Made by a program: the position numbers and the translations under genes. From a virus (taxonomy: Duplodnaviria > Heunggongvirae > Uroviricota > Caudoviricetes): a DNA stretch of 64,000 bases. This document shows positions 35,292-51,775 of the stretch, in pieces. The notes under the pieces were generated by a model. The model saw nothing but the letters and a program-made list of their open reading frames with translations, had not been told where the DNA came from and did no database searches. Positions within the stretch are counted from its first letter, which is position 1, and the number at the start of each line of letters is the position of its first letter. The stretch is from the IMG/VR virus record IMGVR_UViG_3300037424_001372, positions 204,837 to 268,836 of that record, one strand, 5' to 3'.

Positions 35292-36512
35292 TTAAATCCT
35301 ATTTTCTTTTCTTCCTATTTCACCGACACTTGTCTCCATAGGCGTTAATTCCCCGATACTATCAGGTATTTTATTGTTTATTATTCTTAAACCTTCATTC
35401 TTGATATTTATTGCTGCATTATAATCCCTATCTATTGACATATCACATTTAGGACATTTAAATGTCCTTTCACTCAGTGTCAAATCATTGTTCTTATAAC
35501 CACAACAACTACACAATTTACTGGAAGGATAAAACCTGTCTATTTCCACCAAATCCCTACCATACCAAATTGATTTATATGTCAATATATTCTTAAACCT
35601 ATTTAGTGATAGTTCCTGTATTGATCTGGCTAGTTTATGATTTTTCAACATACCTTTTACATTCAAATCCTCAATCACTATAACTTGGTTTTCGTTAAGC
35701 AATTGATTTGATATGGAATGTAAATAATTCTCTTTTTTATTATTTAATTTCTCATGATATTTAGCTAATTTTATTCTTGCCTTGTTCTTATTATTTGATT
35801 TATTTTGTTTTCTTGATAATGATCTTTGTAATTTACTTAATTTCTTCTGGTTATTCCTTTTAATTTTGATATTCTCAAATACTTTATTATCGGAAGTCAC
35901 AATAAATTCTTTAATGCCCAAATCTAAACCAACAACATTGTTGGTTAATGGTAGGATTTTAGCTATTGAATCTGGTAGATCGATTAAAATCGATAAGTAA
36001 TAATAACCAGATTTAGATTTAGTTAATGTTGCTGATTTAATATTATCTTTATATTCTGACAGATAATTAACATATTTCTTTGATGTTTTGAATTTAATAT
36101 CTTTAATTTGAGTGGTCAACGTTAATTTATTATCTATGAATATATTTTTCTTTGATATTGCTTGTAAAGGGAACCTACACGATTGTTTATTATCATGCTT
36201 AGATTTATATTTGGGAAAGCCATTGCCGTTAACAAAAAATCTTTTGTATGTATCGAGGACATTAATAATTGTTTGGTTCAGGACTTTGGTATTGTGTTCG
36301 TTAAGGAACGAATATTCATCATTTTTCAATAGGCCGTGGAAAAGAAAGTTACCAAGAATTTTGAGGTTAGCGGATTTTTTTGTACATTTGTAATGTTCTA
36401 TTGAAAAATTAAGTGCTTGGTTATACGTAAATCTATATGAACCAAGGAGTTTATTCATATAAATTTCTTGATTTTTATTAGGGTATAATTTAAGTTTTAA
36501 ACCTTTAAGCAT
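35292..36512 (-). CDS. tnpB: TnpB/OrfB RuvC-like nuclease with Zn ribbon, B-type copy 2 (solo, no tnpA)
   Basis: CSCCGYKNN...CPKCDMSIDRDYNAAINIKNEGL. No recombinase gene adjacent. Confidence 0.85.
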   Translation of the reverse strand: MLKGLKLKLYPNKNQEIYMNKLLGSYRFTYNQALNFSIEHYKCTKKSANLKILGNFLFHGLLKNDEYSFLNEHNTKVLNQTIINVLDTYKRFFVNGNGFPKYKSKHDNKQSCRFPLQAISKKNIFIDNKLTLTTQIKDIKFKTSKKYVNYLSEYKDNIKSATLTKSKSGYYYLSILIDLPDSIAKILPLTNNVVGLDLGIKEFIVTSDNKVFENIKIKRNNQKKLSKLQRSLSRKQNKSNNKNKARIKLAKYHEKLNNKKENYLHSISNQLLNENQVIVIEDLNVKGMLKNHKLARSIQELSLNRFKNILTYKSIWYGRDLVEIDRFYPSSKLCSCCGYKNNDLTLSERTFKCPKCDMSIDRDYNAAINIKNEGLRIINNKIPDSIGELTPMETSVGEIGRKENRI

Positions 36513-36540
36513 AATTATGTCTTTAATAGACGATTTATAT
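35310..36540 (-). mobile_element. IS1341-like solo tnpB element B2
   Basis: Shares the right-end block TTCCTATTTCACCGA...GGCGTTAATTCCCC with B1. Confidence 0.5.
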
Positions 36541-36839
36541 ATAAATACTCAATAAATAATGAAATGATAGATTTTTTAATGTTTTAATTAAAAATATTTA
36601 TAAGACAAAAAGAAGTACTTGAGATTATTGAATTGATGGGCGATAAAAAGGTTATATTGAATAATGAAATATATTTTGTTAAAAATGGTTAGATATGTTA
36701 TAGTTATGACGAAGATTATAGTTATGATGAAGATGATTATCTTAGATTTAATATTTTTAAATTAAGTACCAAAAATAGATCATGTGATTATTATTTAAAA
36801 GAAATTCGAAATGCTTTGCAATGAGAAGTCATAAATACT

Positions 36840-37121
36840 ATGTTAGGAATATGTACTTTAATTCAATATAATATGAAACTAGATGATGAAGTAATAATAT
36901 TATTATTTAAAAATAATGAAGGTGAAACTACTGTAATAACTTTAACAATAGATCAACTTTTAGATAAAACAAGAGATGATTTATACGAAATGTTAGATAA
37001 TTCTGAACCTTGCACATGCTCAAGCTGCAATAACGAAAGCCAAAACTTTTGTGATTGCGGCTCTAAATATGAAGATTATGAAATTGTTGAGGTACAGGTT
37101 TCTTGTTATAACAATATCTAA
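36840..37121 (+). CDS. hypothetical Cys-rich protein
   Basis: 93-aa ORF. Its stop codon abuts the mini-IS remnant. Confidence 0.4.
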   Translation: MLGICTLIQYNMKLDDEVIILLFKNNEGETTVITLTIDQLLDKTRDDLYEMLDNSEPCTCSSCNNESQNFCDCGSKYEDYEIVEVQVSCYNNI

Positions 37122-37345
37122 ATACACAGAAAAACCATGAAATTGGTTTACGATTTTAATAATCGATGGGATCGCTGATAATCCCCCCTATCCCATCTGT
37201 GAAAACATTTGGGATTGCTTTTCTTAAAATTAAAAAATAGTAAATTACATTAAAATAATTTACTATTTTTTAATACAGTCTGTAATCAACATGTTAAAAT
37301 ATCGCAATTGTTCAACGAAACCCACATAAAATTATGTAAGTCCCG
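37114..37345 (-). mobile_element. miniature (MITE-like) derivative of A-type IS607: right end fused to left end, no ORFs
   Basis: 37114..37230 matches 44129..44250 (tnpB 3'/right end with GGGAT...ATCCC hairpin). 37250..37345 matches 46070..46120 (left end TTTACTATTTTTAATACAGTSTGTAAT). Confidence 0.6.
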
Positions 37346-37440
37346 ATTTCCTAATTCAACGAGCGCGTAACCACTAACTCTCCAAAGGCTTTAATTCCCC
37401 ACAACGGATGGGTATTTGTTTTAATAGAGTATTTTATATA
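37346..37440 (-). mobile_element. B-type IS right-end remnant, directly abutting the mini-A element
   Basis: TTCCTAATTCAACGAGCGCGTAACCACTAACTCTCCAAAGGCTTTAATTCCCCACAACGGATGGGTA is about 90% identical to 29602..29668. Confidence 0.6.
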
Positions 37441-37591
37441 CTAATTATAAATAGTATGAAATGAAAAAAATGTTATATTTAAAAATAATTTTAACAATAT
37501 ATTTCATTAATTTTGTCTATTTCTCTATAAACTGCCAATAAACCCTGCTCCGCCGGTCACTATAATCATAGCCTGATGCCTTGTAGTATTT

Positions 37592-37825
37592 TCACTTTTC
37601 ATGTTTATGTCTAGGTGTTCCAAGATTCAACTTAAAAATAGTTTGCCCAATAGTTTCATTTAGGCTGGCATTTGTATTTCCACTAACTAAATCATCCAAT
37701 AATGTCAACACATCTTGAGGAGATAAGCTCAACTCTTCGGTACCTAAGCTTCCAGTTAGTAGTACACACGCTTTTGATAGCATTTGTTCTGATTTAGTTC
37801 CAGTTTTTAAATCTTTAAAATTCAT
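37592..37825 (-). CDS. hypothetical protein
   Basis: 77-aa ORF in a GC-richer segment. Confidence 0.35.
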   Translation of the reverse strand: MNFKDLKTGTKSEQMLSKACVLLTGSLGTEELSLSPQDVLTLLDDLVSGNTNASLNETIGQTIFKLNLGTPRHKHEK

Positions 37826-38063
37826 GTTTATTTAAATTAATTTATAATAAAATAATGTTACTAATAATATTTTGTTAAAAGTTGGGCAATAGTTCCCCCA
37901 ACCAGCTAAACAAGGTTTTTTCAAAAGAAATGACAAATTCATTAATATGAAATATATGGTGGCATAATGTTTTAGTTTAAGGCAATTTTCAAATTCCTCT
38001 AAACTTGATTCAGGTTTATTCATTATAATCAATTAGTTAAATGATATTGTTAATATATAACAG

Positions 38064-38372
38064 TTATGAATAATACTTCTTAACATACTCATTGAAGAAT
38101 AGTGAAAATCCTTCGACATCTAACTCACAATCACCCATCATATAATGACTCCACTCAGTACGAAATAATGTTTTATCACTATCATTCATTACTTTACTAA
38201 TTTCATTCCATAGTTTTTTCGCTTTATGTTGATTAGATTCTCTTCTACAAAAAACATTATTTCTAAACTCTGTGAAATTACTATTCATAACATCAGATAT
38301 ATGTAATTTTTTATCTGTGTTATCAAGTTCTATGTTCTTATTAACTTTATTCATTTCCTTTTTAAGTTTCAT
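38064..38372 (-). CDS. hypothetical protein
   Basis: 102-aa ORF. Confidence 0.45.
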   Translation of the reverse strand: MKLKKEMNKVNKNIELDNTDKKLHISDVMNSNFTEFRNNVFCRRESNQHKAKKLWNEISKVMNDSDKTLFRTEWSHYMMGDCELDVEGFSLFFNEYVKKYYS

Positions 38373-38421
38373 GTTTCAATTTAAGAAAAAACTACATATA
38401 CACTCAACCGTTATCGGCAAC

Positions 38422-38772
38422 CTAAGAAACCGCTTCGAGCAAATCTGATTTTGAAAAATAATGTTTTTTTCTATTGCCATAATAGAGTTTCGGAATTAAT
38501 GCATTTATTTTTTCAAAGTCCATATTTTCATTTAGAATTTTCATGATTTTTGAAACTTCATCATCACATCTGTTTTCCGAAAATCTTTCTTCATCAATTC
38601 TCTCAGTTATCCATTCAGCATCAATTTCAACAATTGAATTTAATTCAGAACATTCAACTTCTAATTTAAAGTCATCTGGGTAAGATTCTATTTCTTCCTT
38701 ATCCCAATTGTTATAGTCACAACATTCTGATAATTCAGAATAAAAAATATCATTGTAAAAGAAATTTTCCAT
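38422..38772 (-). CDS. hypothetical acidic protein
   Basis: 116-aa ORF. Confidence 0.45.
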   Translation of the reverse strand: MENFFYNDIFYSELSECCDYNNWDKEEIESYPDDFKLEVECSELNSIVEIDAEWITERIDEERFSENRCDDEVSKIMKILNENMDFEKINALIPKLYYGNRKKHYFSKSDLLEAVS

Positions 38773-38820
38773 TTGTTTTATTTTTTAAGTTTAAAATTAG
38801 ATTGAAAAAGGCAGCTCACA

Positions 38821-39162
38821 CTAATCTTTAAATTTAGCTTTATTTTTATTCCACCAAGTTTTCAAAATTTGCATTGTTTGTTCATCTTCCAACATATCGA
38901 AGTCAGCCCTAAAACATTCGTCTTTAACAAATTTTTGTAATATTTTGAAAACACCATCCAATTTACCATTAAATTTCACATTTACATCGTATGTAGCAAT
39001 TTCGTTTATCTTCTTACCAAATACATCAACACAATAGTTAAAGTTTTCTAATAAAAAATTTTGTTCTTTAATTTTGCTTACATCTATTGTCATTTCACAC
39101 ATCACATCAGATATTTCAACCAAACATATTCTTGAGATGGCTTTTGACCAATAAAACCCCAC
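38821..39162 (-). CDS. hypothetical protein
   Basis: 113-aa ORF. Confidence 0.45.
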   Translation of the reverse strand: MGFYWSKAISRICLVEISDVMCEMTIDVSKIKEQNFLLENFNYCVDVFGKKINEIATYDVNVKFNGKLDGVFKILQKFVKDECFRADFDMLEDEQTMQILKTWWNKNKAKFKD

Positions 39163-39620
39163 GGTTCTGTTTTAAATATGCTAGAAATAATATCCTTAAA
39201 TTCGTTTTCCTCACGATATGTTGCTCCCATACATATCAATCTTTCGGGTAATGCGAAACAAGCATCCACAAATTCATTATCGGAGCTACATTTTTCAAGT
39301 CTTCTTAATTCAGACCTTAACTCTTTTTGTAACTCAGGAAATTTATAATAAGGTAAATCATACTTCAATTCATCCTTAATGTATTTTCGTATATTTTTAA
39401 CGCTTGTTTTAGCATCAAAAACATAGTTTTCACGACACAATTTACCTGCAAAGTAGTCACAGTTAATCGTTTTTAAAAACTCTTCAATCTTTGACCCCAT
39501 TGCTCCCCACGAATAAGTAAATGCACCAACCCAAGGGTCTGAAATTGTTATTTTACCTTGACCTTCTTTTTCAAAGTCCTCAATAAAAATATCAGTTTCT
39601 TTAATTTTTAAGTTTTTCAT
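39102..39620 (-). CDS. hypothetical protein
   Basis: 172-aa ORF. Confidence 0.45.
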   Translation of the reverse strand: MKNLKIKETDIFIEDFEKEGQGKITISDPWVGAFTYSWGAMGSKIEEFLKTINCDYFAGKLCRENYVFDAKTSVKNIRKYIKDELKYDLPYYKFPELQKELRSELRRLEKCSSDNEFVDACFALPERLICMGATYREENEFKDIISSIFKTEPWGFIGQKPSQEYVWLKYLM

Positions 39621-39694
39621 TTTATTATTACTTTTCTGCCACTTGGTAATTTTACTTCTATATTTTCAATAAAAACTTCATTTATTTGTAAACG

Positions 39695-39937
39695 TTAGTG
39701 GCAAGCGTGAAAAAATTCACACGTCATACTAATATATTTATCACCACAGTCATCCAATAAAAAACCTTTTAGCTTATCAGACCATACACCTTTAAAAAAC
39801 TGGTTGTTTTGTGAATAGTGATATCTTTGACCATTCAAAGGTTTTTCTTCTTTAAATGAACGCCAACCACTAACAACAGGTATATTTAATGCCCGTGGTG
39901 TTTGTAGTTCATTCAAATTTTGTTCTTCTGTATTCAT
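39695..39937 (-). CDS. hypothetical protein
   Basis: 80-aa ORF. Confidence 0.4.
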   Translation of the reverse strand: MNTEEQNLNELQTPRALNIPVVSGWRSFKEEKPLNGQRYHYSQNNQFFKGVWSDKLKGFLLDDCGDKYISMTCEFFHACH

Positions 39938-39995
39938 TTTATTTTATTTTAAAAATTAGTAATTCTAATTCCCAAACTGGGCATATCTATAACCA

Positions 39996-40226
39996 TTAAC
40001 TGCAAGGCTCAAAATCATCGCATTCTTTAACTTGGTCTTCTGGTGGTTGTGGTTTAATAAACATTTTCTTTTTCTTGCAATATAGTTCTTTATAAGCAGG
40101 TTCATGTATTCCATCGCCACCAGTGTTTATCATTTCAGGCACTTTGCATGTATCACAAAGCCCAGCAGTTAACAACATATATAAAGCATTATCAACCATT
40201 CTAAATTCACTTTTATCTAAACTCAT
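39996..40226 (-). CDS. hypothetical Cys-containing protein
   Basis: 76-aa ORF. Confidence 0.4.
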   Translation of the reverse strand: MSLDKSEFRMVDNALYMLLTAGLCDTCKVPEMINTGGDGIHEPAYKELYCKKKKMFIKPQPPEDQVKECDDFEPCS

Positions 40227-40356
40227 ATCTTAATTAATGTTTCTGTTACAACACCTAACATGCAATATAAAACATAGACTTTCGTTGTCTTTTTTAGTTC
40301 ATACCAAATTTAATCTTTAGTTCATTCTATTTCGTATATGTTTCAAACATTTAACA

Positions 40357-40695
40357 TTAGACAAAATGTGGAGAATCAATCGGTTCAACATAAAACATTG
40401 TACCCCACATCATTTCACCAAACTTATTTGCCAGTTCTTCGGTTCTAAATACAGCCATTAAAGTATTTTCATTTGCTAAGTCAAAACCTACACTGTCTGG
40501 ATAAACAGCAAAAGCATTTTGCCTAACATTGTGTGTTGCAAATGCCTTTCGTGTTTTTTCGACCCATTGTTCAAAAGATTTTGCTTTTTCGTTATCAATA
40601 TTTTCAGGTTCTACCATGTGTCCAGCAGTTTCTTTATTTATAGAATCAAATAATTTGTCGGCAAAATTTTTCACGTCTTTGTCAGTATCTTTCAT
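40357..40695 (-). CDS. hypothetical protein
   Basis: 112-aa ORF. Confidence 0.45.
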   Translation of the reverse strand: MKDTDKDVKNFADKLFDSINKETAGHMVEPENIDNEKAKSFEQWVEKTRKAFATHNVRQNAFAVYPDSVGFDLANENTLMAVFRTEELANKFGEMMWGTMFYVEPIDSPHFV

Positions 40696-40742
40696 AATTT
40701 TAAATTATCATTATTCATAGTTCTGTGTAAGTTAAACAACAT

Positions 40743-41030
40743 TTAAAGAAAAGATAATGCTCTCTTTAAGCAATCTGGACAGATATTAACTGTTGTACTT
40801 TCATAACCTAATAGAATGGTTGTTTCGCAATCATTGCCACACTCACGGCAAATATTTCTAGTCCATTCTTTATTACCAATAATTTCAGCGATTTCATCCT
40901 CTGTTTTAGGTTTTTCAGCCCTTAATCTATTACCCTTTTCAATTTTATCTTTTTGGGATGTATTTCTATATTGAAAGTCCCATCTTTCAGATACATTTTG
41001 AATAAGATTTGATTTTGTAATGATAATCAT
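40743..41030 (-). CDS. zinc-ribbon protein
   Basis: CRECGNDC...CPDC motif. Confidence 0.4.
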   Translation of the reverse strand: MIIITKSNLIQNVSERWDFQYRNTSQKDKIEKGNRLRAEKPKTEDEIAEIIGNKEWTRNICRECGNDCETTILLGYESTTVNICPDCLKRALSFL

Positions 41031-41353
41031 ATGTTGTTATTTAAGAAATCGTACAATTCTGCAGCAGTAGACATTTTGATTTCTTTGTCATTTTGAGTTA
41101 CTTTTAACCGATAGTTTTCTTGACCGAAATTTAGCTCCCATAAAAAATACTCAATCCAACTTTGTGAATGGTGATCGTTCATTTCTACTTGTAAAACATG
41201 AATTAAAGCATCTTGTAAAAAATGATTTCGAGGCAACAAATTAGCTTCATATGCATCTGGAAAGACTTTCCCTAAATGCCCAGAAACCTCAATATCAAAT
41301 TCAATTTGTTTTTGGATTGCATCAATTGCTTCGATAAACAATTCTTTATTCAT
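41027..41353 (-). CDS. hypothetical protein
   Basis: 108-aa ORF. Confidence 0.45.
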   Translation of the reverse strand: MNKELFIEAIDAIQKQIEFDIEVSGHLGKVFPDAYEANLLPRNHFLQDALIHVLQVEMNDHHSQSWIEYFLWELNFGQENYRLKVTQNDKEIKMSTAAELYDFLNNNI

Positions 41354-41436
41354 GATATTTTAAGTTTAAGATTAATGAAAAATAATGACAAACACAATAT
41401 GATAAAATGTAAGAAATTTTGATAAAAAATTTAACC

Positions 41437-41673
41437 TTAAAAAGATCGATACCATAGCCCTTCTATGTAATTGTCGAGTGTAGTTTTCAGTATAACATAA
41501 TTATCCATAACTTCATAGTTATTAGATAATTCTTCGAGTTGTTCAATTATTTCTTGTTTACGCTCTCTAGCTGCTTGTTCCATTGCCAGTAAACAAATAA
41601 CATTCCATGATTGACAATTATCTTTCGCTGCTTGTTCGAGTACTTCTTTTAAAATTTCTTCAAATGTTCTCAT
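41437..41673 (-). CDS. hypothetical protein
   Basis: 78-aa ORF. Confidence 0.4.
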   Translation of the reverse strand: MRTFEEILKEVLEQAAKDNCQSWNVICLLAMEQAARERKQEIIEQLEELSNNYEVMDNYVILKTTLDNYIEGLWYRSF

Positions 41674-41710
41674 ATTGTTTTTATTTTATACCTAATGATA
41701 AGCAGTCGAT

Positions 41711-42196
41711 TTAAATTGAATTATTTCTTAAATAATCTCTAACTTCCATCAATACTTTCCCCAATAGATTCTGGCCACGCCATTTAGTTTCATCATAAAT
41801 TTCAGGACTATTTTCCTCCAACCCAATACCCCAAATATTGTCATTAGGATTTACTTCAACAAGTATCTTATCTCCTGTCGATAATAATTTAGTTTTTAAA
41901 TCTTCGTTTTGCGTATATTTACAAAGATTTGCTTGAAACATCGCTTGGCATCTAACTTTAGACCATTCCTCGTCATTATAGTTTTTAACTTGTCTTCCCA
42001 ATGCTTTTGCTTCATAAGGAACAGGTGTATTTAATATTTTATTAGCAATTTCGATATCTTCGAAAAATAATGCTTTATGATATATAAACATTTGTTCAGT
42101 ATTTTTGAAAACATTATCATTTGAAAAAATTTCACAATGTTTAAAATTGCTCAGCCATTCTTTTAAAAAGAATATATGCGTGTTTGTTTCTTTCAT
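41711..42196 (-). CDS. NADAR-family protein (YbiA-like N-glycosidase / ADP-ribosyl-DNA hydrolase family)
   Basis: C-terminal NIWGIGLEE...WRGQNLLGKVLMEVRDYL matches the NADAR signature (WG.G...G.N.LG..LM.VR..L). Confidence 0.65.
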   Translation of the reverse strand: MKETNTHIFFLKEWLSNFKHCEIFSNDNVFKNTEQMFIYHKALFFEDIEIANKILNTPVPYEAKALGRQVKNYNDEEWSKVRCQAMFQANLCKYTQNEDLKTKLLSTGDKILVEVNPNDNIWGIGLEENSPEIYDETKWRGQNLLGKVLMEVRDYLRNNSI

Positions 42197-42273
42197 TTTA
42201 ATCTAATTAATATCCAATATTTATTGTAAATACGATGTAAATATGTGTGAAAATAAAAAAATGATGAATAAAA

Positions 42274-43749
42274 TTATGAATCAATTTTAGTGGTTAAAAT
42301 AATTGCAGTATTTGATGGACGACTTAATGCCACATAGCGTAATTTATTTCTTTCAACAATATCTTGATTTAAATTAATATCAATTTCATTAATCACAACA
42401 TTTTGATATGTTGAACCTTGAGCTTTGTGTATTGTGATAAAATAACCATAATCAATGTCTTTTTTTATCACATCATAATTATTTCTATATTGACCATTAA
42501 TATATTTATCGATATCTTTCATTAAAATATTACTTCGTCTAAATTCATAATATCTTTTCCAAAGTTTTTTATTTGATTTTGCTTGGTCTCTTAAAAAATC
42601 ATGCATTTGACCAAATAAATGTAAATTATTATGATTATTAACATCAACAATAAATATGTCTTGAAATTTAAACTGTTTATTATCAATCTCTTCTCTGATT
42701 TTAACTTCAAATCCTTGAATTCCGTATGAATTTTCAATTAGACTTGATTTTTCAACAACAATGTAATCAGCAGAATTTTGAATAATTATTATATTTTGTT
42801 TATCATTTAAGATTGTTCGATATCCTGTGATTAAATCATTTTTTTCAATTATATCCACATCACAACCAAATAATTCATCTCTAATTATTTTATTTGATAT
42901 CATTACTGTATTATTTTTCCAAGCCAACCCTTTCACATAATCAAAATCTTTCTTAAATTCCTCTGATTTAAATTTTTCTAAAACTAATTTTCTAAATTCT
43001 TTTTTATTTATTGTAAATATTACACCATCACCATTATCATTTATATTAGTTTTTCTTTCAAAATTACCACTAATATCTGTCAAACTATTTCTTAAATTAT
43101 CATATAAAAATAATAATGGATTATCATCTTTCTGTCTTTCAACCTTACTTAAATGATATTTTTCAATATCTTCTGAAATAAAAACTGGTGAAATTGTTTG
43201 ATTTATTGGAGGTAATTGTGCTCTATCACCCATAAACAATACTTTTGTCTTAGTTTTTTTTAGTTGTTCAATAATTAAATTAAATAATTCTGAATTTATC
43301 ATAGAACATTCATCAATAATACAAAGAGAATAGTCACCTATCCTTGGCAATGCTATTGGCGCAAATGAGGGGTCATTAGGGTTGTATGATGAAATTTCTA
43401 AATCAGGACGTAGCCCAAGCAACGAATGTAAAGTTTGACTCTGTTTTCTTGTGAATTTATAAATAATTTTACATGCTTTATGAGTAGGCGCACTCACACA
43501 AATTCCAAAACGATATTCATCAACAATTTTTTTAATACAAGTACTTTTACCAACACCCGCAAAACCAGACAACGTAAAAAACTTAGAGTTTTTATTTTTC
43601 AACCACGCTCTTATTTTATTAATTCCCTCATATTGTTCATCATTTAAGGTAATAATCTTACCATTAGATAAAATCATTTGATTATCATCAACCTTAATAT
43701 CGTTTTTAAATTTATGTGAAGGACCTAATTCAGAATCTAAATTAAACAT
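42274..43749 (-). CDS. SF1B DNA helicase, Dda/RecD-like
   Basis: Walker A GFAGVGKST. C-terminal TIHKAQGSTYQNVVI and YVALSRPSNTAII motifs. Confidence 0.8.
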   Translation of the reverse strand: MFNLDSELGPSHKFKNDIKVDDNQMILSNGKIITLNDEQYEGINKIRAWLKNKNSKFFTLSGFAGVGKSTCIKKIVDEYRFGICVSAPTHKACKIIYKFTRKQSQTLHSLLGLRPDLEISSYNPNDPSFAPIALPRIGDYSLCIIDECSMINSELFNLIIEQLKKTKTKVLFMGDRAQLPPINQTISPVFISEDIEKYHLSKVERQKDDNPLLFLYDNLRNSLTDISGNFERKTNINDNGDGVIFTINKKEFRKLVLEKFKSEEFKKDFDYVKGLAWKNNTVMISNKIIRDELFGCDVDIIEKNDLITGYRTILNDKQNIIIIQNSADYIVVEKSSLIENSYGIQGFEVKIREEIDNKQFKFQDIFIVDVNNHNNLHLFGQMHDFLRDQAKSNKKLWKRYYEFRRSNILMKDIDKYINGQYRNNYDVIKKDIDYGYFITIHKAQGSTYQNVVINEIDINLNQDIVERNKLRYVALSRPSNTAIILTTKIDS

Positions 43750-43808
43750 ATTTTAACTATTTATTTTCTTCAGAATTTAATATAATTGATTTTCTATTAT
43801 CATTTATA

Positions 43809-44153
43809 TTAAATTAATGACGATCTAATTATTTCAATTAATTGTTTTAATTGGTTTAAGTCATTAAATTTCACTTCTTCTCTTTCAAAAAATTCAACAG
43901 TATATCCCTCACCATTTTTTCTTTCATCATTGGAGTTTGAAATTAATAAACATTTTCCACCGACAACAAAAGAATAATAATGGAATCCATTTTCTTCAGG
44001 TTCAATTGAAGCATGTTCAATTTCCTTTTTAAAACCCAATTTAATTAAATCGTTGCCTTTAATTTGATTATTTTTCATATCTTTGTCAATAAAATCAATA
44101 ATATATTGAGTGACGGTAGTATGATTTATTTCAGCAACAGTATCTAAAAACAC
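43809..44153 (-). CDS. hypothetical protein (annotated N-terminus derives from IS right-end sequence; the true start is probably an internal ATG)
   Basis: The GTG start and codons LDTV are encoded by the conserved GTATCTAAAAACACAG IS-end block. Confidence 0.35.
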   Translation of the reverse strand: MFLDTVAEINHTTVTQYIIDFIDKDMKNNQIKGNDLIKLGFKKEIEHASIEPEENGFHYYSFVVGGKCLLISNSNDERKNGEGYTVEFFEREEVKFNDLNQLKQLIEIIRSSLI

Positions 44154-44168
44154 AGAAAATCCATGAAA

Positions 44169-45437
44169 TTAGTTTACGATTTTAATAATCGATGGGATTA
44201 CTGATAATCCCTCTATCCCATCTGTGAAAACATTTGGGACTGCTTTTCTTAATATATTATAACTTCCGTTCACATCGGCATTAATTACCTTATCTTCTCC
44301 CTTAATCTTATATAATCCCCTACATTTACGGTAGTCAGAGAACGAAGGTTCTTCGTTTATCTTTCCGTAAATAGGGATGTTATCCATATTAAGAAATGAT
44401 GCTTTAGAGGTATAACTTTCCTCCTGAAGTATAATATTTATTCCAGCTTTTTCGCATTTATAAACAAGCATGTTTATAAATCTACTATGTGGAATGTTAA
44501 CGAAGTTCTGATTTGAGTTTTTACTCATATCTGTGGATTGTTTCCAACCATCGTTCTTACCGATTATCATGGTGTTTGTTTGTCTTTCTTTTGCAATATC
44601 TATAACCAACTTACTTGCTTTATGCAAATAATCATCAACCTTGCGGTTGCGTTTATTCGTCATTCTGCGAGTTCGATTGCTATGTTTCTCTTTATTTCTT
44701 TTTTCTAATATAGAATTATAATGTGCAATTTTTTTATTATAAAACTGATTCATGGATTTTAATGGTCTACCATTAATAATCATAGATTTAATTTCATTAA
44801 CATTGCTAGTTATTGTTGCTAAATTATTCACGCCTAAATCTAAACTCAAATAACGATTATTGTTTTGTAATTTAGATACGTCAGGTATTTGATAAACAAT
44901 CTCTATAACATAGTGATCTAATCGTGGAACGATTCTGACAATAAGTATATTTTCTTTTTTAGTTGTTAATTGTATATTAGTTTTAGATAATGCTAAAATA
45001 CCTTTTTTAAGAAATTTTTTAGAAATGGCACCTTTTTCATAAATGACAATGAATCTACCATCTTTTTTATCTAAATAAGAAGGTAATTTAGGAATGCCTT
45101 TATATTTAGCCGGATTTTTCTTATAATCTCTAATAGAAGCGAAAAACGATTTCCAATTTCTATCCAAAACCATTAAGGTTTGGTTTGAAACCTTAAGTGG
45201 AAGTTGATACATATCGAATTGTTTATCATCTACAAGAAGCCTATTAATATCATTATAATTAAGATAATTAGCAAAGGAACGAGTTCCTTCTTGTTTTTCT
45301 TTTGATGTTTGAATAAATTCTTGTCTAATAATATGATTGGCGTAATTATATAGATTTTTAGATTTAAAACACACGCTATCACATTCAGCGTACAATGCTG
45401 AATTTTTATTGATGATATGTTTTTCTACTAATCTCAT
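44169..45437 (-). CDS. tnpB: TnpB/OrfB RuvC-like nuclease, A-type copy 2
   Basis: 422 aa, homologous to 160..1377, with ADVNGSYNILRKA tail and no Zn-ribbon cysteines. Confidence 0.85.
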   Translation of the reverse strand: MRLVEKHIINKNSALYAECDSVCFKSKNLYNYANHIIRQEFIQTSKEKQEGTRSFANYLNYNDINRLLVDDKQFDMYQLPLKVSNQTLMVLDRNWKSFFASIRDYKKNPAKYKGIPKLPSYLDKKDGRFIVIYEKGAISKKFLKKGILALSKTNIQLTTKKENILIVRIVPRLDHYVIEIVYQIPDVSKLQNNNRYLSLDLGVNNLATITSNVNEIKSMIINGRPLKSMNQFYNKKIAHYNSILEKRNKEKHSNRTRRMTNKRNRKVDDYLHKASKLVIDIAKERQTNTMIIGKNDGWKQSTDMSKNSNQNFVNIPHSRFINMLVYKCEKAGINIILQEESYTSKASFLNMDNIPIYGKINEEPSFSDYRKCRGLYKIKGEDKVINADVNGSYNILRKAVPNVFTDGIEGLSVIPSIIKIVN

Positions 45438-45439
45438 AT

Positions 45440-46006
45440 TTATTTTTCTAAAAATTTAATTATTTCTTCTTTGTTTTTCTTTTTTCTTAAACCATACATT
45501 CTTGCAGAAAATGAATATATGATAGAAATTAAATCTTGCATTAAATCGGTCTTATCATCATCAACTCTATTGACTACTAAAATTTTTTTATTATTTAAAG
45601 TAAGTAGTTTTTCAATATAATTAAACCCGAAACGGGTTAGTCTGTCTTTATTTTCAACGATTAACGCATCCCAATCATTTTGTTGTAAAAGTTTAATAAG
45701 TTTAGGTCTATGGTCGTTAAGACCGGAACCGATTTCTTTAATGTTGTAAATAATATCATAACCATTATTAATACAATAATTAACCATTCTTTCTGATTGT
45801 CTATCTAAGTTATCTTTTCTATCGGAATTAGATACTCTGGAATAAATAGCTGCTTTTTTACCATTATCAAATTCTGGGACTTTAATACAAACATGTCCAG
45901 TTTTATCAATAAAACAATTATCTATTTTTCCTGCCTTATATCTATTCCACGCTGTTCTATATGTGACATTAAATTTTTTAGCGTAGTCTGATAATTTATA
46001 ATACAT
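45440..46006 (-). CDS. tnpA: IS607-family serine recombinase TnpA (MerR-like HTH plus resolvase domain)
   Basis: YSRVSNSDRKDNLDRQ catalytic core with N-terminal HTH. Stop lies 2 nt before the tnpB start. Confidence 0.85.
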   Translation of the reverse strand: MYYKLSDYAKKFNVTYRTAWNRYKAGKIDNCFIDKTGHVCIKVPEFDNGKKAAIYSRVSNSDRKDNLDRQSERMVNYCINNGYDIIYNIKEIGSGLNDHRPKLIKLLQQNDWDALIVENKDRLTRFGFNYIEKLLTLNNKKILVVNRVDDDKTDLMQDLISIIYSFSARMYGLRKKKNKEEIIKFLEK

Positions 46007-46106
46007 TATTTTTATTATTTTAATATAAATAGTTTTTATTTTAAAAAAAGATGTGAAAATTTTAAATTATTTTACTATAATTTACTATTTTTAATACAGT
46101 GTGTAA

Positions 46107-46262
46107 TTAACATAAGTCCATTTCATGTGAGTCAAATCCCCAAGAAATGTTAGGGACTATAATGTTTTGCCTTATGCCGAAATGTTTAGCAATAACCACT
46201 TCAATTTCTGCTGTGGTGATTGGTTTTGGTTTATTTCTATTTCTATTTCCCTTAATGCCCAT
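46107..46262 (-). pseudogene. PD-(D/E)xK nuclease-like gene fragment truncated by insertion of IS A2
   Basis: MGIKGNRNRNKPKPITTAEIEVVIAKHFGIRQNIIVPNISWGFDSHEMD then runs straight into the IS left end. Confidence 0.4.
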
Positions 46263-46527
46263 TTAAACAACCGTTTTTTGGTAAATCAACTACTTGTAAT
46301 TGACTAACAACAACCTTAGTATTTTGTTTGAGAAGTTCCTTTCTTACAACAAATTCTGAATTGAATTTTTCTCTGAAATTTTTTTCACTACCATAATCAT
46401 GAACATCATTTTCCAATTTCATCTCAACTTCAAAACCATTTTCAATAAAAAATCTTTCGAGCAATAATGCCATCGTTGATTTTCCGCTCGCAGTTTCACC
46501 TGCAACAATAATTTGTAGATTTTTCAT
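46252..46527 (-). CDS. small P-loop NTPase/kinase-like protein
   Basis: Walker A GETASGKST. Only 91 aa. Confidence 0.45.
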   Translation of the reverse strand: MKNLQIIVAGETASGKSTMALLLERFFIENGFEVEMKLENDVHDYGSEKNFREKFNSEFVVRKELLKQNTKVVVSQLQVVDLPKNGCLNGH

Positions 46528-46541
46528 ATTATTTTTTATAA

Positions 46542-47126
46542 TTACTTATCAAATATTGATTTAAATATTTTGCGTAAATTATCCAAAGTAATTACCTCTT
46601 TAGTATCTTCATGCAAAACATTGGTATATTTTTTAAATAAAATGTATACTGATTCAGCATAACAATCATCAAACACTTGAATCGATGCATATTTCCAATC
46701 ACGATTTTTATTTGCTTGTGGGTCACTGATAATATCTGCAAGATAATTTAAAGTTACTTTAAGTATATCGGTAATATTAAAATTCTTTGTTTTAAATTTT
46801 TTCCATTCATTTCCGCATTTATTACAATGATTAACTTCCAAAGTATCAATATTCAACGTTGTTTTAATTGTTCCAAATCCCAAATAAAACGTTTCATTGA
46901 CCTTCATATTACCTTGAACTTGTCTAACCTTATCTACGATATTTATTTTACCTGTGTTACATTTAGGGCAATAATTATTATGAGATAATTGATTTTCCTT
47001 TTGTTCTTCAGACTCAATATCAGCTATTTTACCACATCTTTCAACAATAATTTTAACATCGCCAATAAGTTTCTGCTTTTGAATATCGGTAGGTATGTAC
47101 AATAATTTGCGAAAATTCAAATTCAT
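46542..47126 (-). CDS. zinc-finger protein
   Basis: YCPKCNTGK and HCNKCGNEW motifs. Confidence 0.4.
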   Translation of the reverse strand: MNLNFRKLLYIPTDIQKQKLIGDVKIIVERCGKIADIESEEQKENQLSHNNYCPKCNTGKINIVDKVRQVQGNMKVNETFYLGFGTIKTTLNIDTLEVNHCNKCGNEWKKFKTKNFNITDILKVTLNYLADIISDPQANKNRDWKYASIQVFDDCYAESVYILFKKYTNVLHEDTKEVITLDNLRKIFKSIFDK

Positions 47127-47701
47127 TATGCTAATTTTTTATCCATTATCAATTGACGAAGAAATACATTCTTAACTCCACCAATCAATCTTACCCATTC
47201 CTTATAATAATCCGGGAATATTTCTTGTTGTTTTTCAAAACTTTGACTTCTCAACATCAATTCGTTTTCACTTGACATTTCAAGTAATGCTTCTGGTGAC
47301 ATTTTACTCAAAATAAAATCATAAAAATGTGGATATTTTTTATAATTGAAAACCCTTTCATCAACAATAAAACACAATGCAGTTAATGCATCATTTAAAT
47401 CGGGTTCAAAAAAGAAAGAAAATTCAACATCATTTTCTTGAAGTTCATCACCAATTTTATTTAGACTTCCAAAAGGAATTGATTCTAAATCTCTATTACT
47501 ATTAGTTGTTCCACCATTAAGTACAATCCAAGTTTTCCAATTATTAACAAAATCTTGAAATAGTTCAGTGTTACCATATTTATTAGCATACTCAAGAGCA
47601 GCATGTCCACATTGAATACCTTTAGAAATTCCCTGAAGTGAAGATATTACAAAAAAATACATTCTCAATTCCAATTCTTCGTTTTGTTCTATGTTCATCA
47701 T
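47126..47701 (-). CDS. peptidyl-tRNA hydrolase PTH2-like domain protein
   Basis: ISKGIQCGHAALEY resembles the PTH2 GKGK(I/V)AAQC(S/G)HAA motif. Extra C-terminal domain of about 70 aa. Confidence 0.45.
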   Translation of the reverse strand: MMNIEQNEELELRMYFFVISSLQGISKGIQCGHAALEYANKYGNTELFQDFVNNWKTWIVLNGGTTNSNRDLESIPFGSLNKIGDELQENDVEFSFFFEPDLNDALTALCFIVDERVFNYKKYPHFYDFILSKMSPEALLEMSSENELMLRSQSFEKQQEIFPDYYKEWVRLIGGVKNVFLRQLIMDKKLA

Positions 47702-47913
47702 AATTAATTTTCAATTTTACAAATATATGAATTTTGAAATTAAAATCAATATATTATTTATAAATTATTAGTTGAATATTTCATTAAGCTATTAACTACA
47801 TTAGAATTATTAATAATTGTCATTGCTTCAGTTGCTAATGTTAGTTCAGCAATTCTCTATTTAATTTCCTCAGTTTCTTCTAATGATTGAAGATATATTA
47901 ATCTTTTGTTCTA

Positions 47914-48432
47914 TCATATAGTTCGTTCATATGTAGTATGTTTGTAATTCAAACCTTGTGAACTTTTAATCCAAGAACAATCATCAATAATTTGAAAATC
48001 ATGAAATAACTTATCAATCGGGAAGAATTTATCACCCTCTTTAATTAAAATATCAACCCATGAAATAATTGCTTCATTACAATGATCAATTAATTGTTCA
48101 TAAATTTGAGAACCCCCTGCAATATAAATTGTTTTACCATTAAAATCTTCATTAGAATCGAAGTATTCTAACAACTCATTTACTGATGTAAATTGATTTG
48201 GGTAATATTTATCAGAATTAAGATTTCGAGATAACACATAGTATTCACGATTCTTTTTAGCTACTTCTGGTAATAAATCATATGTTTTAGAACTAATTAT
48301 AATGTGATTACCAGTAGTAACACTCTTATAATGATTTAAATCTTCTGGAATATACCAAGGAATATTATTACCTACTCCAATAATACCATCCAAACTTACT
48401 GCTGCGATTATTGATAACTTATACTTTCTCAT
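47914..48432 (-). CDS. dihydrofolate reductase
   Basis: IAAVSLDGIIGVGNNIPW, SSKTYDLLP and YIAGGSQIYEQL match DHFR motifs. Confidence 0.85.
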   Translation of the reverse strand: MRKYKLSIIAAVSLDGIIGVGNNIPWYIPEDLNHYKSVTTGNHIIISSKTYDLLPEVAKKNREYYVLSRNLNSDKYYPNQFTSVNELLEYFDSNEDFNGKTIYIAGGSQIYEQLIDHCNEAIISWVDILIKEGDKFFPIDKLFHDFQIIDDCSWIKSSQGLNYKHTTYERTI

Positions 48433-48434
48433 TA

Positions 48435-48985
48435 TTAATTGTTTTCATTATTAACTATCCAACGATTAAGATGTTGAGCTTCGATTTGAGGCGTAAAATC
48501 AGCATCGCCCATATCTGAAACAGGTATTTCAAAAAATATTGTTTTATATATGATTATTGGTTCAGATTCAACACTAATTTTAGCATCATAATAAGCAACA
48601 CCTTTTCTTATACATAATAATTCTGCTATTGGTTTTTGTTTGTAAAGCAATTTTTTAATTTCAGTTGTTGTCATAATTAATTTGATTTTTTGTTTGTTAA
48701 CATCATTATAAATTGCTGATTTCTTATCAGCACTATATAATATCAAAGTAATTTCATCACTTTGAGTATAACCTATCACAGCATTGGTCTCTTCTACCAA
48801 AAATTTGGTGGTTTCATCATCAAATCGCTCAAATTTTCATCAAACGGACGATTTAAGCCCTTTACATATTGAGAGAAATTGCCGCCATCAAGTCTAATAA
48901 TAACAGGAAGAGTCGGAATCATTACATCTGGTGAAAAGTTTTTTTCTAAAAATTTACACCAACCTCCAAGATTTTTAAATTCCAT
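48435..48985 (-). pseudogene. Thg1-like protein (tRNA-His guanylyltransferase family), split by a frameshift near 48795..48805
   Basis: Upstream ORF has PVIIRLDGGNFSQYVKGLNRPFDENLSDLMMK (Thg1 VVRIDG.NFH.F....F.KP.D motif). Downstream ORF continues with AVIGYTQSDEITLIL (Thg1 IAYGVSDEYSFVF). Confidence 0.55.
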
Positions 48986-49301
48986 AATTTAATTTAATTT
49001 TTAAAATACTATTTTCAATATCATCTAACACAATTTCGCAGTTATTGTAATTTAATTTACTAATATCAAAATAATCAACATCAGCATTACGATACCTTGC
49101 TTTAATTAATATTTCATTAACATAAACTTCAGTATATTTCATTATTTTCTTGTAATACGATTCTTTTGTTGTATGTTTTGGATTACGAATATTCCAAGCA
49201 TCTAACATTGATTTCATGTCAGTAATATTTCCTAATTCAATTACATTTTCAAGAATAATATTCCCAAAATTAATCATATCAGATTCATCATATGTTCTCA
49301 T
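48975..49301 (-). CDS. hypothetical protein
   Basis: 108-aa ORF. Confidence 0.45.
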   Translation of the reverse strand: MRTYDESDMINFGNIILENVIELGNITDMKSMLDAWNIRNPKHTTKESYYKKIMKYTEVYVNEILIKARYRNADVDYFDISKLNYNNCEIVLDDIENSILKIKLNYGI

Positions 49302-49302
49302 A

Positions 49303-49506
49303 TTATTTATTTTTTCCTAAAATATTAAAAATATCTTTAAAATCACCAAGTAAATCACTAAATAAATCATCATTTTTTATTTCTTCAACTTTATGAAAAA
49401 TAATTCGTTTCTCAATCTGTTCATTAGCTTCCTTTTCAGATTTAGCAAGAACAGTTGTTTTCATTTTTCTTCCATAAAATTCAAAAAGTATTTGATATTT
49501 TTTCAT
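49303..49506 (-). CDS. hypothetical protein (start taken at internal ATG; the annotated upstream extension is IS-remnant derived)
   Basis: MKKYQILFEFYGRK... The track ORF start at 49542 is a TTG inside the IS right-end remnant. Confidence 0.35.
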   Translation of the reverse strand: MKKYQILFEFYGRKMKTTVLAKSEKEANEQIEKRIIFHKVEEIKNDDLFSDLLGDFKDIFNILGKNK

Positions 49507-49528
49507 TTTATTCAAATTTACTTTGACA

Positions 49529-49590
49529 GTATCTAAAGACAAAATTAGATTACGATTTTAATAATTGATGGGATTGCTTTTTTTTAAGCG
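49529..49590 (-). mobile_element. degenerate A-type IS right-end remnant with internal deletions
   Basis: GTATCTAAAGACAAAATTAGATTACGATTTTAATAATTGATGGGATTGCTTTT aligns to 44129..44250 with two gaps. Confidence 0.55.
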
Positions 49591-49650
49591 ATGTTTTTTT
49601 TTTAATTATAAGAAAAATTTAAATTATTTTATTATAATTTATTAGTTTTA

Positions 49651-50205
49651 TCACTTCTTTTCAAATGGATCAACACCATCATTTTCCTCACCAGTTTCAA
49701 AAGCTTCTTTAGTTTTAGCACTTGTCACAAGTTTAATTTCCAAATCAGGTTTATTACCAAGAACCAAACTATTAGGAAAAGTAACTTTCATCGATTTAAG
49801 TTCCCTATCAATATCAATTAGTTTCTTTTGTTCCATAGTAAACTCGTTACGACTACCTTCAATAGTATTCATTACGGTTTTAAATAAACTTGCATCAAAC
49901 TCGGGATTTGATTCTGTAATCCATTTCATAAGAGTTTCTTTACCTGCACCAGCATCGTTTTTATAACGAGCATCCATGATTTCAACATAAACCTCTTTAA
50001 AACTTGATTTATATTCGGCAGCAACACCTGCTTGTCCTGAAATTTTCTTCCAAGTGTTATCAAACACTATTTCAGAATTTTTCTGAGCAGCACGACCTGT
50101 TTCAAGTTTCACATTATAGGTGTTTGAAAGACCTATTGCCCAAAAAGCAATAATTGCACCCAAAATACCAATACTAATTAAAGTAATAATTGTACCTTTA
50201 CCCAT
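49651..50205 (-). CDS. LemA-like membrane protein
   Basis: N-terminal TM followed by a LemA-like region with conserved R...ARY segment. Confidence 0.35.
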   Translation of the reverse strand: MGKGTIITLISIGILGAIIAFWAIGLSNTYNVKLETGRAAQKNSEIVFDNTWKKISGQAGVAAEYKSSFKEVYVEIMDARYKNDAGAGKETLMKWITESNPEFDASLFKTVMNTIEGSRNEFTMEQKKLIDIDRELKSMKVTFPNSLVLGNKPDLEIKLVTSAKTKEAFETGEENDGVDPFEKK

Positions 50206-50282
50206 TTTTTTAAATTTTATTTATTTAATTTTAAATTAATACGACAAATATATAAAATTGTTACAATGTCTTACTAAGATAG

Positions 50283-50468
50283 TCAACATTTTTTTTCAGT
50301 ATTATTCATTTCAATTTTTATCAAATCCAATAATGATTTCTTTAAATAAAATTCATTATCTTCATCAAAATATTGTTTGAGCATTACAACTAAATTCATA
50401 GGTGATGAGAGTTTATTACGAATATCGGCCCCAATCTCACCACCATCAAACACATTTAATTCAATCAT
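50283..50468 (-). CDS. hypothetical protein
   Basis: 61-aa ORF. Confidence 0.3.
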   Translation of the reverse strand: MIELNVFDGGEIGADIRNKLSSPMNLVVMLKQYFDEDNEFYLKKSLLDLIKIEMNNTEKKC

Positions 50469-50494
50469 TTCGATATTCGATATTTTTTTTATTA

Positions 50495-51409
50495 TTAATT
50501 AATACGATTACATAAAATACTAACTATGTTTTTATTCTCCCAATATGGAATTTTTAGTAAAGTAATCTCGTGCAATTTACAATATTTATTCTTAATATTA
50601 TCACATTTTTTCTGTGTTTTTAATATGTTTTCATTTGATATGCCTTTTAATACCTTATAATGATATTCACCTTGATATTCGATACACATATTAATATCGG
50701 GCAAATAAAAATCAAAACGTAGATTTTTAATGTTTTTACAATCATTAAACGAATGCTCATAAATGTAATTAATATTGTTATTCTCTAAATAACACTTAAT
50801 AGCATATTCACCTTTAGACATCTTACAATTAGGACATGGAGCATTTCGTTGATTTCGATAATGAACAGATTTTTCCCATTCATGACCACAAGTATTACAA
50901 AGCCACCAAAATTTTTTAGTTGTGTTCGATTGAATGTTTTCAGGACGTATAGGATAATTTCTATCGTAATTCCATTGTTTTGCAATATCTGGATTAATTA
51001 TTAGTGAATTATTGGCTTCATTAACCTTTCTTCCTGAACAATGTGGACAATCAAATAAATTTTTATTAGTAGTATTCCAAGACCTATCAAAAGTATAATT
51101 ACATAATAAACATTGCCATTTTAAATTACCTATCGAATTTTTATATATGTTACTAACTAATTGATACGATTTATTGTTCAATTTACACCAAAGTTTTATA
51201 TTATCAATGGTGTGTGAATTATTTTGACTAAAATAAATTGGCTTAGTGCTTCTAAGAATATTATTTATTCGAGTATTAATATGATATCCGTCAGAATTAG
51301 AAATGGTTATTTTTCCTTCATTGCCAATTGATTCAATACTAATCAAATTATAGCCCAACTGATTAACAACTTCAATAATCTTTTCCTTAGTATATTTATA
51401 TTGTTTCAT
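50495..51409 (-). CDS. tandem treble-clef Zn-ribbon protein with C-terminal DUF559/Vsr-like PD-(D/E)xK nuclease domain
   Basis: Repeated W.C..C...W....R.....CP.C units (WQCLLCNYTF...CPHC; WWLCNTCGHEW...CPNC). C-terminal FDFYLPD...CIEYQGEYH. Confidence 0.45.
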   Translation of the reverse strand: MKQYKYTKEKIIEVVNQLGYNLISIESIGNEGKITISNSDGYHINTRINNILRSTKPIYFSQNNSHTIDNIKLWCKLNNKSYQLVSNIYKNSIGNLKWQCLLCNYTFDRSWNTTNKNLFDCPHCSGRKVNEANNSLIINPDIAKQWNYDRNYPIRPENIQSNTTKKFWWLCNTCGHEWEKSVHYRNQRNAPCPNCKMSKGEYAIKCYLENNNINYIYEHSFNDCKNIKNLRFDFYLPDINMCIEYQGEYHYKVLKGISNENILKTQKKCDNIKNKYCKLHEITLLKIPYWENKNIVSILCNRIN

Positions 51410-51564
51410 TTTAATATGATTTGATTAAAATACTCTTGAAGTAACCAGTTAATTAGTTTAGATTTGTTTATATGTAAATCATTAAGTTGTTTATTAATAT
51501 CAGGATTGATGGTAATGGAAAATTTTATTTTCTTGTCTTCGAGATTCATAGTTTTTCTTGCCAT
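51406..51564 (-). CDS. ribbon-helix-helix (CopG-like) small DNA-binding protein
   Basis: MARKTMNLEDKKIKFSITINPDINKQLNDLHINKSKLINWLLQEYFNQIILK. Its stop overlaps the start of the nuclease gene (ATGA). Confidence 0.45.
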   Translation of the reverse strand: MARKTMNLEDKKIKFSITINPDINKQLNDLHINKSKLINWLLQEYFNQIILK

Positions 51565-51610
51565 AGTACTTGGTTTAACATAAATACTAAGAAAAAATGG
51601 AAAAGTATGA

Positions 51611-51775
51611 TTAATCCGACTTTTTGATCAATTTTTTTATATCTTTTTTATCTAACTTTATCCACTTATCTAATAATGAATTAATTAACTTAGACTTATT
51701 ATATTTCCCCTCCTCAAGTTTATCGTTAATTTCTTTATCGATAGATAGACCAATTTTTGTTTTGTTCTTGCTCAT
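51611..51775 (-). CDS. ribbon-helix-helix (CopG-like) small DNA-binding protein, paralog
   Basis: MSKNKTKIGLSIDKEINDKLEEGKYNKSKLINSLLDKWIKLDKKDIKKLIKKSD. Confidence 0.45.
   Translation of the reverse strand: MSKNKTKIGLSIDKEINDKLEEGKYNKSKLINSLLDKWIKLDKKDIKKLIKKSD

Follow-up and report, generated by a model that had tools for sequence, protein, structure and literature searches.

The 64,000-nucleotide stretch analysed here (positions 204,837 to 268,836 of the IMG/VR virus record IMGVR_UViG_3300037424_001372, Caudoviricetes; hereafter the window) carries two ADP-ribose-processing genes, one for a NADAR-family protein and one for a macrodomain protein, whose products may independently erase base-linked ADP-ribose (ADPr) from phage nucleic acid and thereby counter DarT1-like and DarT2-like toxins. 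The probability of this reading, which is drawn from homology, is put at roughly 0.6. A previous sequence-only reading had placed the two open reading frames (ORFs) in these families and had regarded them as a counter-defence toolkit against host ADP-ribosylating immunity. The family assignments are borne out, in that profile and structure-sequence searches place both ORFs in the families named and the catalytic residues are present in both proteins. The counter-defence interpretation is supported by homology: homologues remove guanine-linked or thymine-linked ADPr (G-ADPr and T-ADPr), and the phage proteins AdfN and AdfM defeat DarTG1 and DarTG2. The integrity of the two genes, their family and subclass membership, the conservation of known functional residues and the recurrence of the pair in large phages are established by the analyses that follow.

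The 161-residue product of the NADAR gene contains the signature NIWGIGLEE...WRGQNLLGKVLMEVRDYL, which had been noticed in the earlier reading. The match to Pfam PF08719 runs from residue 13 to residue 157 and takes in positions 11-163 of a profile that is 163 positions long, with an E-value of 3.2e-47 and a score of 161 bits against a cut-off of 35, and the protein also matches the phage family phrog_1017. The best solved match is the P. nicotianae NADAR in complex with ADPr (PnNADAR, PDB 8bau, E=2.4e-23), the match to E. coli YbiA (PDB 2b3w) is weaker (E=4.5e-7), and the G. lovleyi DarG1-type NADAR structure 8BAT gives no match at E<=0.01. The ADPr-contacting and catalytic residues of PnNADAR are E43, K50, K75, R79, Y84, W89, R93, E125, D130 and W133 (PMC11543638), and all ten are identical in the window protein, where they correspond to E34, K41, K64, R68, Y73, W78, R82, E114, D119 and W122. 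Four of them (E34, K41, R68 and W78) are invariant in an alignment of 16 sequences.

The catalytic position in the last strand distinguishes the NADAR subtypes, being Glu in YbiA, Asp in BC4488 and DarG1, and His in T4 gp30.3 (PMC11543638, PMC11125620). In the window protein this position is E114, which lies within the motif ILVEVNPND, and T4 gp30.3 has His in the same alignment column; judged by its sequence, the window NADAR is of the Glu type (YbiA subfamily). NADARs hydrolyse G-ADPr (PMC11543638), and all tested subtypes act on G-ADPr but not on T-ADPr (PMC11125620), with cytosine-linked ADPr as a possible additional substrate (PMC12945103).

A comparison with the phage NADARs that are known to defeat DarTG1, collectively AdfN, reveals the closest functional precedent. 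The published AdfN set comprises proteins of Bas60/61/62, Bas32/33 and T4 gp30.3, and for the Bas60-62 type both neutralisation of DarT1 and the rescue of three phages from DarTG1 have been shown (Johannesman et al. 2025, PMC11825919). The window NADAR aligns end to end with bas62_0106 of Bas62, a protein of this type (99% of the length, 33% identity, E=5e-21), with E34, K41, R68 and W78 common to the two proteins and Glu in the E114 column of both. In contrast, its identity to T4 gp30.3, with His in place of Glu114, is 21%, and its source is an AT-rich jumbo phage unrelated to these, in which an anti-DarTG1 role is predicted from homology.

The 151-residue macrodomain product contains the motifs GDAT, HICNNVRGWGAG and HCPRFGAGLSGG, as the earlier reading had stated. 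It nevertheless misses the cut-off of the Pfam Macro model PF01661 (15 bits against 22, E=0.025, C-terminal part only), so a search restricted to Pfam would overlook it, and its identity was resolved by sequence searches against the PDB. These yield BT1257 (2fg1/2afc, E=5e-48) and SCO6735 (5e3b, "Macrodomain protein", E=3e-37), followed at a distance by the ALC1/CHD1L macrodomain (5e-11), the ADP-ribose-1''-phosphate phosphatase 6lfu (weakly, 5e-4) and TARG1/OARD1 (weakly, 0.014). Over the full length, identity is 54-55% to BT1257 and 48% to SCO6735. The residues H24, N27, Q81 (SCO6735 Gln85) and G124 (SCO6735 Gly128) are invariant in an 11-sequence alignment of the subclass that takes in both of its solved members, SCO6735 and BT1257. 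On these sequence criteria the protein belongs to the SCO6735/BT1257 (Gln-type) subclass of the ALC1-like class, to which the Pfam Macro model is insensitive.

SCO6735 lacks the catalytic lysine of DarG and TARG1 and depends instead on Gln85; it removes the thymidine-ADP-ribose made by DarT, neutralises DarT2 and rescues cells, and it additionally cleaves mono-ADP-ribose from Glu/Asp residues of PARP1 (Hlousek-Kasun et al. 2022, PMC9411070). It also removes uracil-linked ADPr (U-ADPr) from RNA, which NADARs do not (PMC13036486). The window macrodomain is accordingly predicted to strip ADPr from thymine or uracil and possibly also from Glu/Asp-linked sites on proteins. Like SCO6735 and BT1257, it keeps H24, N27, Q81 and G124, and the segment after Q81, in which the "mobile loop" of SCO6735 presumably lies, equals the corresponding SCO6735 segment in length. 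In the subclass this loop is expected to exceed that of DarG/TARG1 by about 5 residues, and the length comparison made here was with SCO6735. The window protein differs in being phage-encoded, in having Arg85 in place of Lys89 of SCO6735 as well as a substitution at Lys34 of SCO6735 that is considered below, and in giving no evidence of SOS/RecA-type regulation.

The one phage macrodomain for which defeat of DarTG2 has been shown is AdfM (PhiKZ gp104), a DarG2-like protein of chimalliviruses (Morgan et al. 2026, PMC13309987). The two proteins are both stand-alone and of similar size, and they share an invariant Asn (N27 in the window protein, N23 in AdfM) and a glycine-rich phosphate loop. However, they are only 22% identical, AdfM has the DarG-type Lys at the position of Gln81 rather than the SCO6735-type Gln, and no phage-nucleus context is found here. 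The low identity and the exchange of Lys for Gln suggest that, if the role is shared, the window macrodomain was recruited independently of AdfM. DarG, the DarTG2 antitoxin, has its macrodomain joined to a C-terminal DarT-binding domain and is encoded beside darT2. The window protein is a single domain of 151 amino acids whose neighbours have no ADP-ribosyltransferase (ART) domain, and the 138-residue protein encoded downstream of it is a separate one.

In the proposed mechanism, the NADAR would hold the ADP-ribose moiety through E34, K41, R68, Y73, W78, R82, D119 and W122 and, using E34 and E114, would cut the N-glycosidic bond between the ribose and the exocyclic amine of guanine, or possibly cytosine, in single-stranded DNA. 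In the macrodomain, Q81, standing in place of the catalytic lysine of DarG/TARG1, would orient the substrate so that water can cleave ADPr linked to thymine N3 (or to uracil). The pair would remove from phage DNA the replication-blocking marks that DarT1-like host toxins place on guanine and DarT2-like host toxins on thymine. Enzymatic activity, DNA as the substrate, the timing of expression and the counter-defence role are the parts of this mechanism that we infer.

Both genes are transcribed from the minus strand, start with ATG and have a G+C content typical of the window. They lie in a leftward non-structural block (35292..63828) downstream of rIIB, separated by 15.6 kb and about 30 genes, and they do not form an operon. 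The term "toolkit" is therefore justified as far as co-carriage of the two genes is concerned, but not in the sense of a single unit.

The co-carriage recurs in other large phages. Among 50,697 phage records, homologues of the NADAR are present in 923 and homologues of the macrodomain in 143, from which about three records with both would be expected under independence. At least three (Emma1919, A150 and cardinal) carry both among the 90 matches listed for each protein (the 30 best and 60 spread over the rest), which implies an overlap far above chance; this is a rough figure, and clade structure confounds it. An above-chance co-occurrence of Macro and NADAR domains in DNA viruses has been reported (Iyer et al. 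2022, PMC9503650). The two genes are 14 kb apart in the Streptomyces phage Emma1919 and about 20 kb apart in the phi92-like genomes A150 and cardinal. An apparent tie between the macrodomain homologue P0020 and the NADAR homologue P0238 (a longest-contig value of 15,260 for both) is a coincidence, as the two lie on different contigs.

The matches of the two proteins far exceed what chance would give, and each protein has hundreds to thousands of metagenomic homologues. The phage-like relatives of the macrodomain reach 68% identity, and the closest NADAR relatives (72-75% identity) are encoded on two contigs, 640 kb and 422 kb long. On the larger of these (L021:10001-11901, an IMG/VR contig of 639,979 bp), the 75%-identical NADAR gene lies directly upstream of a TnpB gene, and no other gene within 10 kb on either side resembles any gene of the window. 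The dissimilar surroundings and the adjoining TnpB gene suggest that the NADAR gene has moved horizontally between very large phages, possibly alongside insertion sequence (IS) elements.

Several observations weigh against the removal of ADPr from phage DNA as the role of the pair. Although E. coli YbiA and T4 gp30.3 are both active on G-ADPr in vitro, neither rescues cells from DarT1 on its own (PMC11125620), so intact residues are no guarantee of antitoxin function. The window NADAR is likewise a bare, YbiA-sized domain that lacks the basic N-terminal extension of the DarG1-type NADAR antitoxins, and it differs from these further in having Glu rather than the Asp of BC4488/DarG1 and no darT1 gene beside it. 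In the macrodomain, the DNA-positioning Lys34 of SCO6735 is replaced by Ala34. The two genes are neither adjacent nor demonstrably co-regulated, and a scan for sigma-70 promoters found 138 sites where 139 are expected, which is the chance level and uninformative. Attempts to infer the host from cluster names and from the cellular homologues of the macrodomain, which are no more than about 55% identical and come from many phyla, gave no host in which DarT1, DarT2 or similar toxins could be sought. In Emma1919 and in an ENA contig, the NADAR and macrodomain homologues stand amid RNA ligases, Thg1, polynucleotide kinase and tRNAs. Finally, most phage Macro and NADAR domains, together with SLOG and Nudix genes, have been argued to target soluble ADPr derivatives (Iyer et al. 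2022, PMC9503650).

The neighbourhoods of the homologues, in which NamPT and Nudix genes or RNA-repair genes occur, keep two alternatives alive. In the first, which is unlikely but deserves the most attention, both enzymes would degrade soluble NAD-derived molecules, either toxins or second messengers of immunity (Thoeris gcADPR, His-ADPR or N7-cADPR, for example) or ADPr breakdown products, with the NADAR cutting N-glycosidic ribosyl linkages and the macrodomain cutting O-linked or 1''-substituted ADP-ribose. In two IMG/VR loci (L018:40-3963 and L019), genes for a NamPT-like protein (531 amino acids), a membrane protein, a NADAR (166 amino acids), a 104-residue ORF, a Nudix protein (141 amino acids), a macrodomain (149 amino acids) and a GIY-YIG endonuclease form a cluster in which NamPT, NADAR, Nudix and macrodomain lie within 4 kb, a context of NAD metabolism. 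The window also encodes a homologue of Tad3, with which phages inhibit ThsB, the TIR protein of Thoeris (PMC13402655, PMC13243611), and TIR/ADPR signalling is therefore a relevant threat to the phage. However, the literature examined holds no report of a NADAR or an ALC1-like macrodomain that degrades Thoeris signals, and the nearest characterised homologues act on base-linked or protein-linked ADPr in every activity that has been demonstrated. Searches of the 64-kb window for NamPT, Nudix and SLOG genes found none, and no DUF4326 gene was seen. The genomes collected by Iyer et al. resemble the present one in being large and myovirus-like and in having Macro and NADAR genes that stand alone within non-structural regions, but in the window these genes lie apart, neither clustered nor fused.

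A role in RNA repair or protection is somewhat less likely still. The proteins would remove ADPr-1''-phosphate or Appr>p arising from Tpt1/KptA-type tRNA repair, or they would de-ADP-ribosylate RNA bases, the macrodomain acting on U-ADPr and the NADAR on G-ADPr or C-ADPr. The macrodomain matches phrog_335 (2.9e-27), a family labelled "phosphatase", in addition to its weak match to 6lfu, and the activity of SCO6735 on RNA and the RNA-repair surroundings in Emma1919 and the ENA contig point in the same direction. The window itself has a Thg1-like gene, apparently split by a frameshift, and a pair of genes for an AAA_33 kinase and an HD phosphohydrolase, but neither the NADAR nor the macrodomain gene is next to any of these, and the 64 kb yielded neither an RNA ligase nor KptA/Tpt1. 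Moreover, the macrodomain is far closer to SCO6735 and BT1257 than to Poa1-type phosphatases (5e-4).

Control of protein ADP-ribosylation, in which the pair would reverse an attack by host ARTs or tune Alt/Mod-like ADP-ribosyltransferases of the phage, appears improbable. The action of SCO6735 on PARP1 is compatible with it, and in T4 the NADAR gene 30.3 and alt, which encodes an ADP-ribosyltransferase, lie about 3 kb apart; however, no ART or DarT domain is detected in the window, and the literature examined reports no protein substrate for NADARs. Least probable is that the NADAR is an auxiliary metabolic YbiA-like N-glycosidase that detoxifies intermediates of the riboflavin pathway, as its Glu-type signature, its size and the frequent naming of its homologues as "GTP cyclohydrolase II" or "ribA/ribD-fused" might imply, because the window has no riboflavin genes, PnNADAR, a G-ADPr hydrolase, matches the protein far better than YbiA does, YbiA itself hydrolyses G-ADPr (PMC11125620), and Bas60-62 have a NADAR of the same Glu type whose action against DarTG1 is proven (PMC11825919).

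The removal of base-linked ADPr from phage nucleic acid is thus retained as the preferred reading, and the Tad3 homologue, from its sequence, would be a third, unlinked gene of the window aimed at NAD-based immunity, which indicates that the phage invests in defeating immunity of this kind. A broader claim can be advanced only tentatively, with the balance leaning somewhat against it: the two enzymes would make up a complete set for G(C) and T(U) de-ADP-ribosylation with a second, independent origin of anti-DarT2 activity, and together with Tad3 they would leave the phage pre-armed against DarTG1, DarTG2 and Thoeris. AdfN, AdfM and the co-occurrence of NADAR and Macro domains in large phages have all been published; the pair is therefore a new example and not a new mechanism, and what is new, to a modest degree, is that a phage encodes a macrodomain of the Gln-type, SCO6735-like kind. 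If the preferred reading is correct, the AdfN and AdfM classes reach into an uncultured, AT-rich jumbo-phage lineage, and the SCO6735/BT1257-type macrodomain, studied so far only in bacteria, is a phage weapon against thymine ADP-ribosylation. No new mechanism would be opened and no long-standing question resolved, and the two genes would provide a natural pair for asking whether phages need both base specificities against DarTG1 and DarTG2.

The window has a G+C content of 27%, and a megablast comparison of 20 kb of it with the 50,697 phage records gave no match; the phage has no close cultured relative. A 324,744-bp JGI contig and Logan contigs of the run SRR12684511 encode both exact proteins. 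Upstream of the macrodomain gene, at a distance of about 10 kb, is rIIB, and in a 340-kb relative a 67%-identical macrodomain is encoded about 2.4 kb downstream of rIIB, where the 781-residue gene that precedes rIIB may be rIIA. The size of the JGI contig, the synteny with rIIB and the NADAR relatives on 640-kb and 422-kb contigs identify the window as part of an AT-rich jumbo phage, uncultured and T4-like in some features, with a genome of about 325 kb.

The window uses the standard genetic code, since alternative codes bring no gain, and no tRNA genes were found in the 64 kb. A Shine-Dalgarno core is present upstream of 4 of the 108 called genes. Scarcity of such sites is typical of phages whose hosts skip Shine-Dalgarno-led initiation, for example Bacteroidota, and it hints at a Bacteroidota-like host, although the host is not established. 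The features of the window that are discussed in the text are collected in Table 1.

Table 1. Positions of the NADAR and macrodomain genes and of other annotated features of the window.
Feature	Coordinates	Strand	Matches and remarks
Stand-alone NADAR (YbiA/Glu-type), predicted ADP-ribosyl N-glycohydrolase, 161 aa	41711..42196	-	Pfam PF08719, phrog_1017, PDB 8bau
Stand-alone macrodomain, ALC1-like class, SCO6735/BT1257 (Gln-type) subclass, 151 aa	57813..58268	-	PDB matches, phrog_335
All-helical protein just downstream of the macrodomain, 138 aa	57312..57728	-	AlphaFold2 pLDDT 92.8, no Pfam family
Dda/PIF1-like SF1 helicase	42274..43749	-	Pfam AAA_30 1.5e-20, AAA_19, PIF1, UvrD_C_2
Tad3 homologue, 204 aa	17439..18053	+	Pfam PF25185 3.8e-23; PDB 9b7d_B "Tad3" 3.8e-29
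PurA-like adenylosuccinate synthetase	51809..52978	-	phrog_1211, labelled "2-aminooxy adenylosuccinate synthetase"
MazG-like pyrophosphatase	56250..56699	-	no PDB match
HD phosphohydrolase	25840..26403	+	no PDB match
Thg1-like (tRNA-His guanylyltransferase / 3'-5' polymerase)	48435..48985	-	two ORFs, 7-nt overlap
TnpB (OrfB_IS605 / Cas12f-like TNB)	160..1377	+	
TnpB (OrfB_IS605 / Cas12f-like TNB)	29570..30925	-	
TnpB (OrfB_IS605 / Cas12f-like TNB)	35292..36512	-	
TnpB (OrfB_IS605 / Cas12f-like TNB)	44169..46006	-	
LAGLIDADG homing-endonuclease-like	62896..63828	-	leftward block
DUF4379 treble-clef zinc-finger protein	50495..51409	-	leftward block

In addition to the NADAR and macrodomain genes, the leftward block holds the helicase, DHFR, PurA-like, MazG-like, LAGLIDADG and TnpB/IS607 genes and many small ORFs without an assigned function. 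The helicase gene is immediately upstream of the NADAR gene, with a gap of 77 nt.

The 138-residue protein encoded just downstream of the macrodomain has 193 metagenomic homologues, which are uniform in length and highly conserved. A homologue follows the macrodomain in five related loci (L003, L004, L005, L026/L027 and L115/L116), but in L114 the gene also stands without a macrodomain, for which reason a functional module of the two genes was rejected; their adjacency probably reflects synteny with a core gene rather than a functional partnership. A structural comparison with T4 UvsY (4zwt_F) gives TM values of 0.56/0.60 and a shared LDYxxGR motif, but an hhalign E-value of 0.29, and the modelled protein may be a UvsY-like recombination mediator.

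The Tad3 homologue is flanked by YopX-domain genes (16110..16508 and 18070..18441). The PurA-like, MazG-like and HD proteins are the three components expected of a gene cluster for a 2-aminoadenine (Z) genome, and such a genome would have given the NADAR a connection with an N2-amino purine. This candidate is unsupported: the best PDB match of the PurA-like protein is cellular PurA (about 1e-21), no PurZ-labelled entry is among its PDB matches, and in phages it is matched best by genes labelled "PurA-like" in mycobacteriophages and in phages of Rhizobium and Vibrio. None of these phages is known to carry a Z genome.

In the Thg1-like gene, profile positions 9-51 are matched by the ORF at 48794..48985 and positions 58-98 by the ORF at 48435..48800, and candidate explanations of the split are a frameshift, a pseudogene, an error of assembly and programmed recoding. 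The four TnpB genes form two pairs of paralogues with identities of 52% and 62%, and two of the four have an IS607-type serine recombinase upstream, one at 45440..46006 and the other just left of the window (seen in the locus L023). Four TnpB genes in 64 kb amount to an IS605/IS607 load that is unusually dense for a phage, and the LAGLIDADG and DUF4379 genes enlarge the selfish or mobile-element load of the leftward block.

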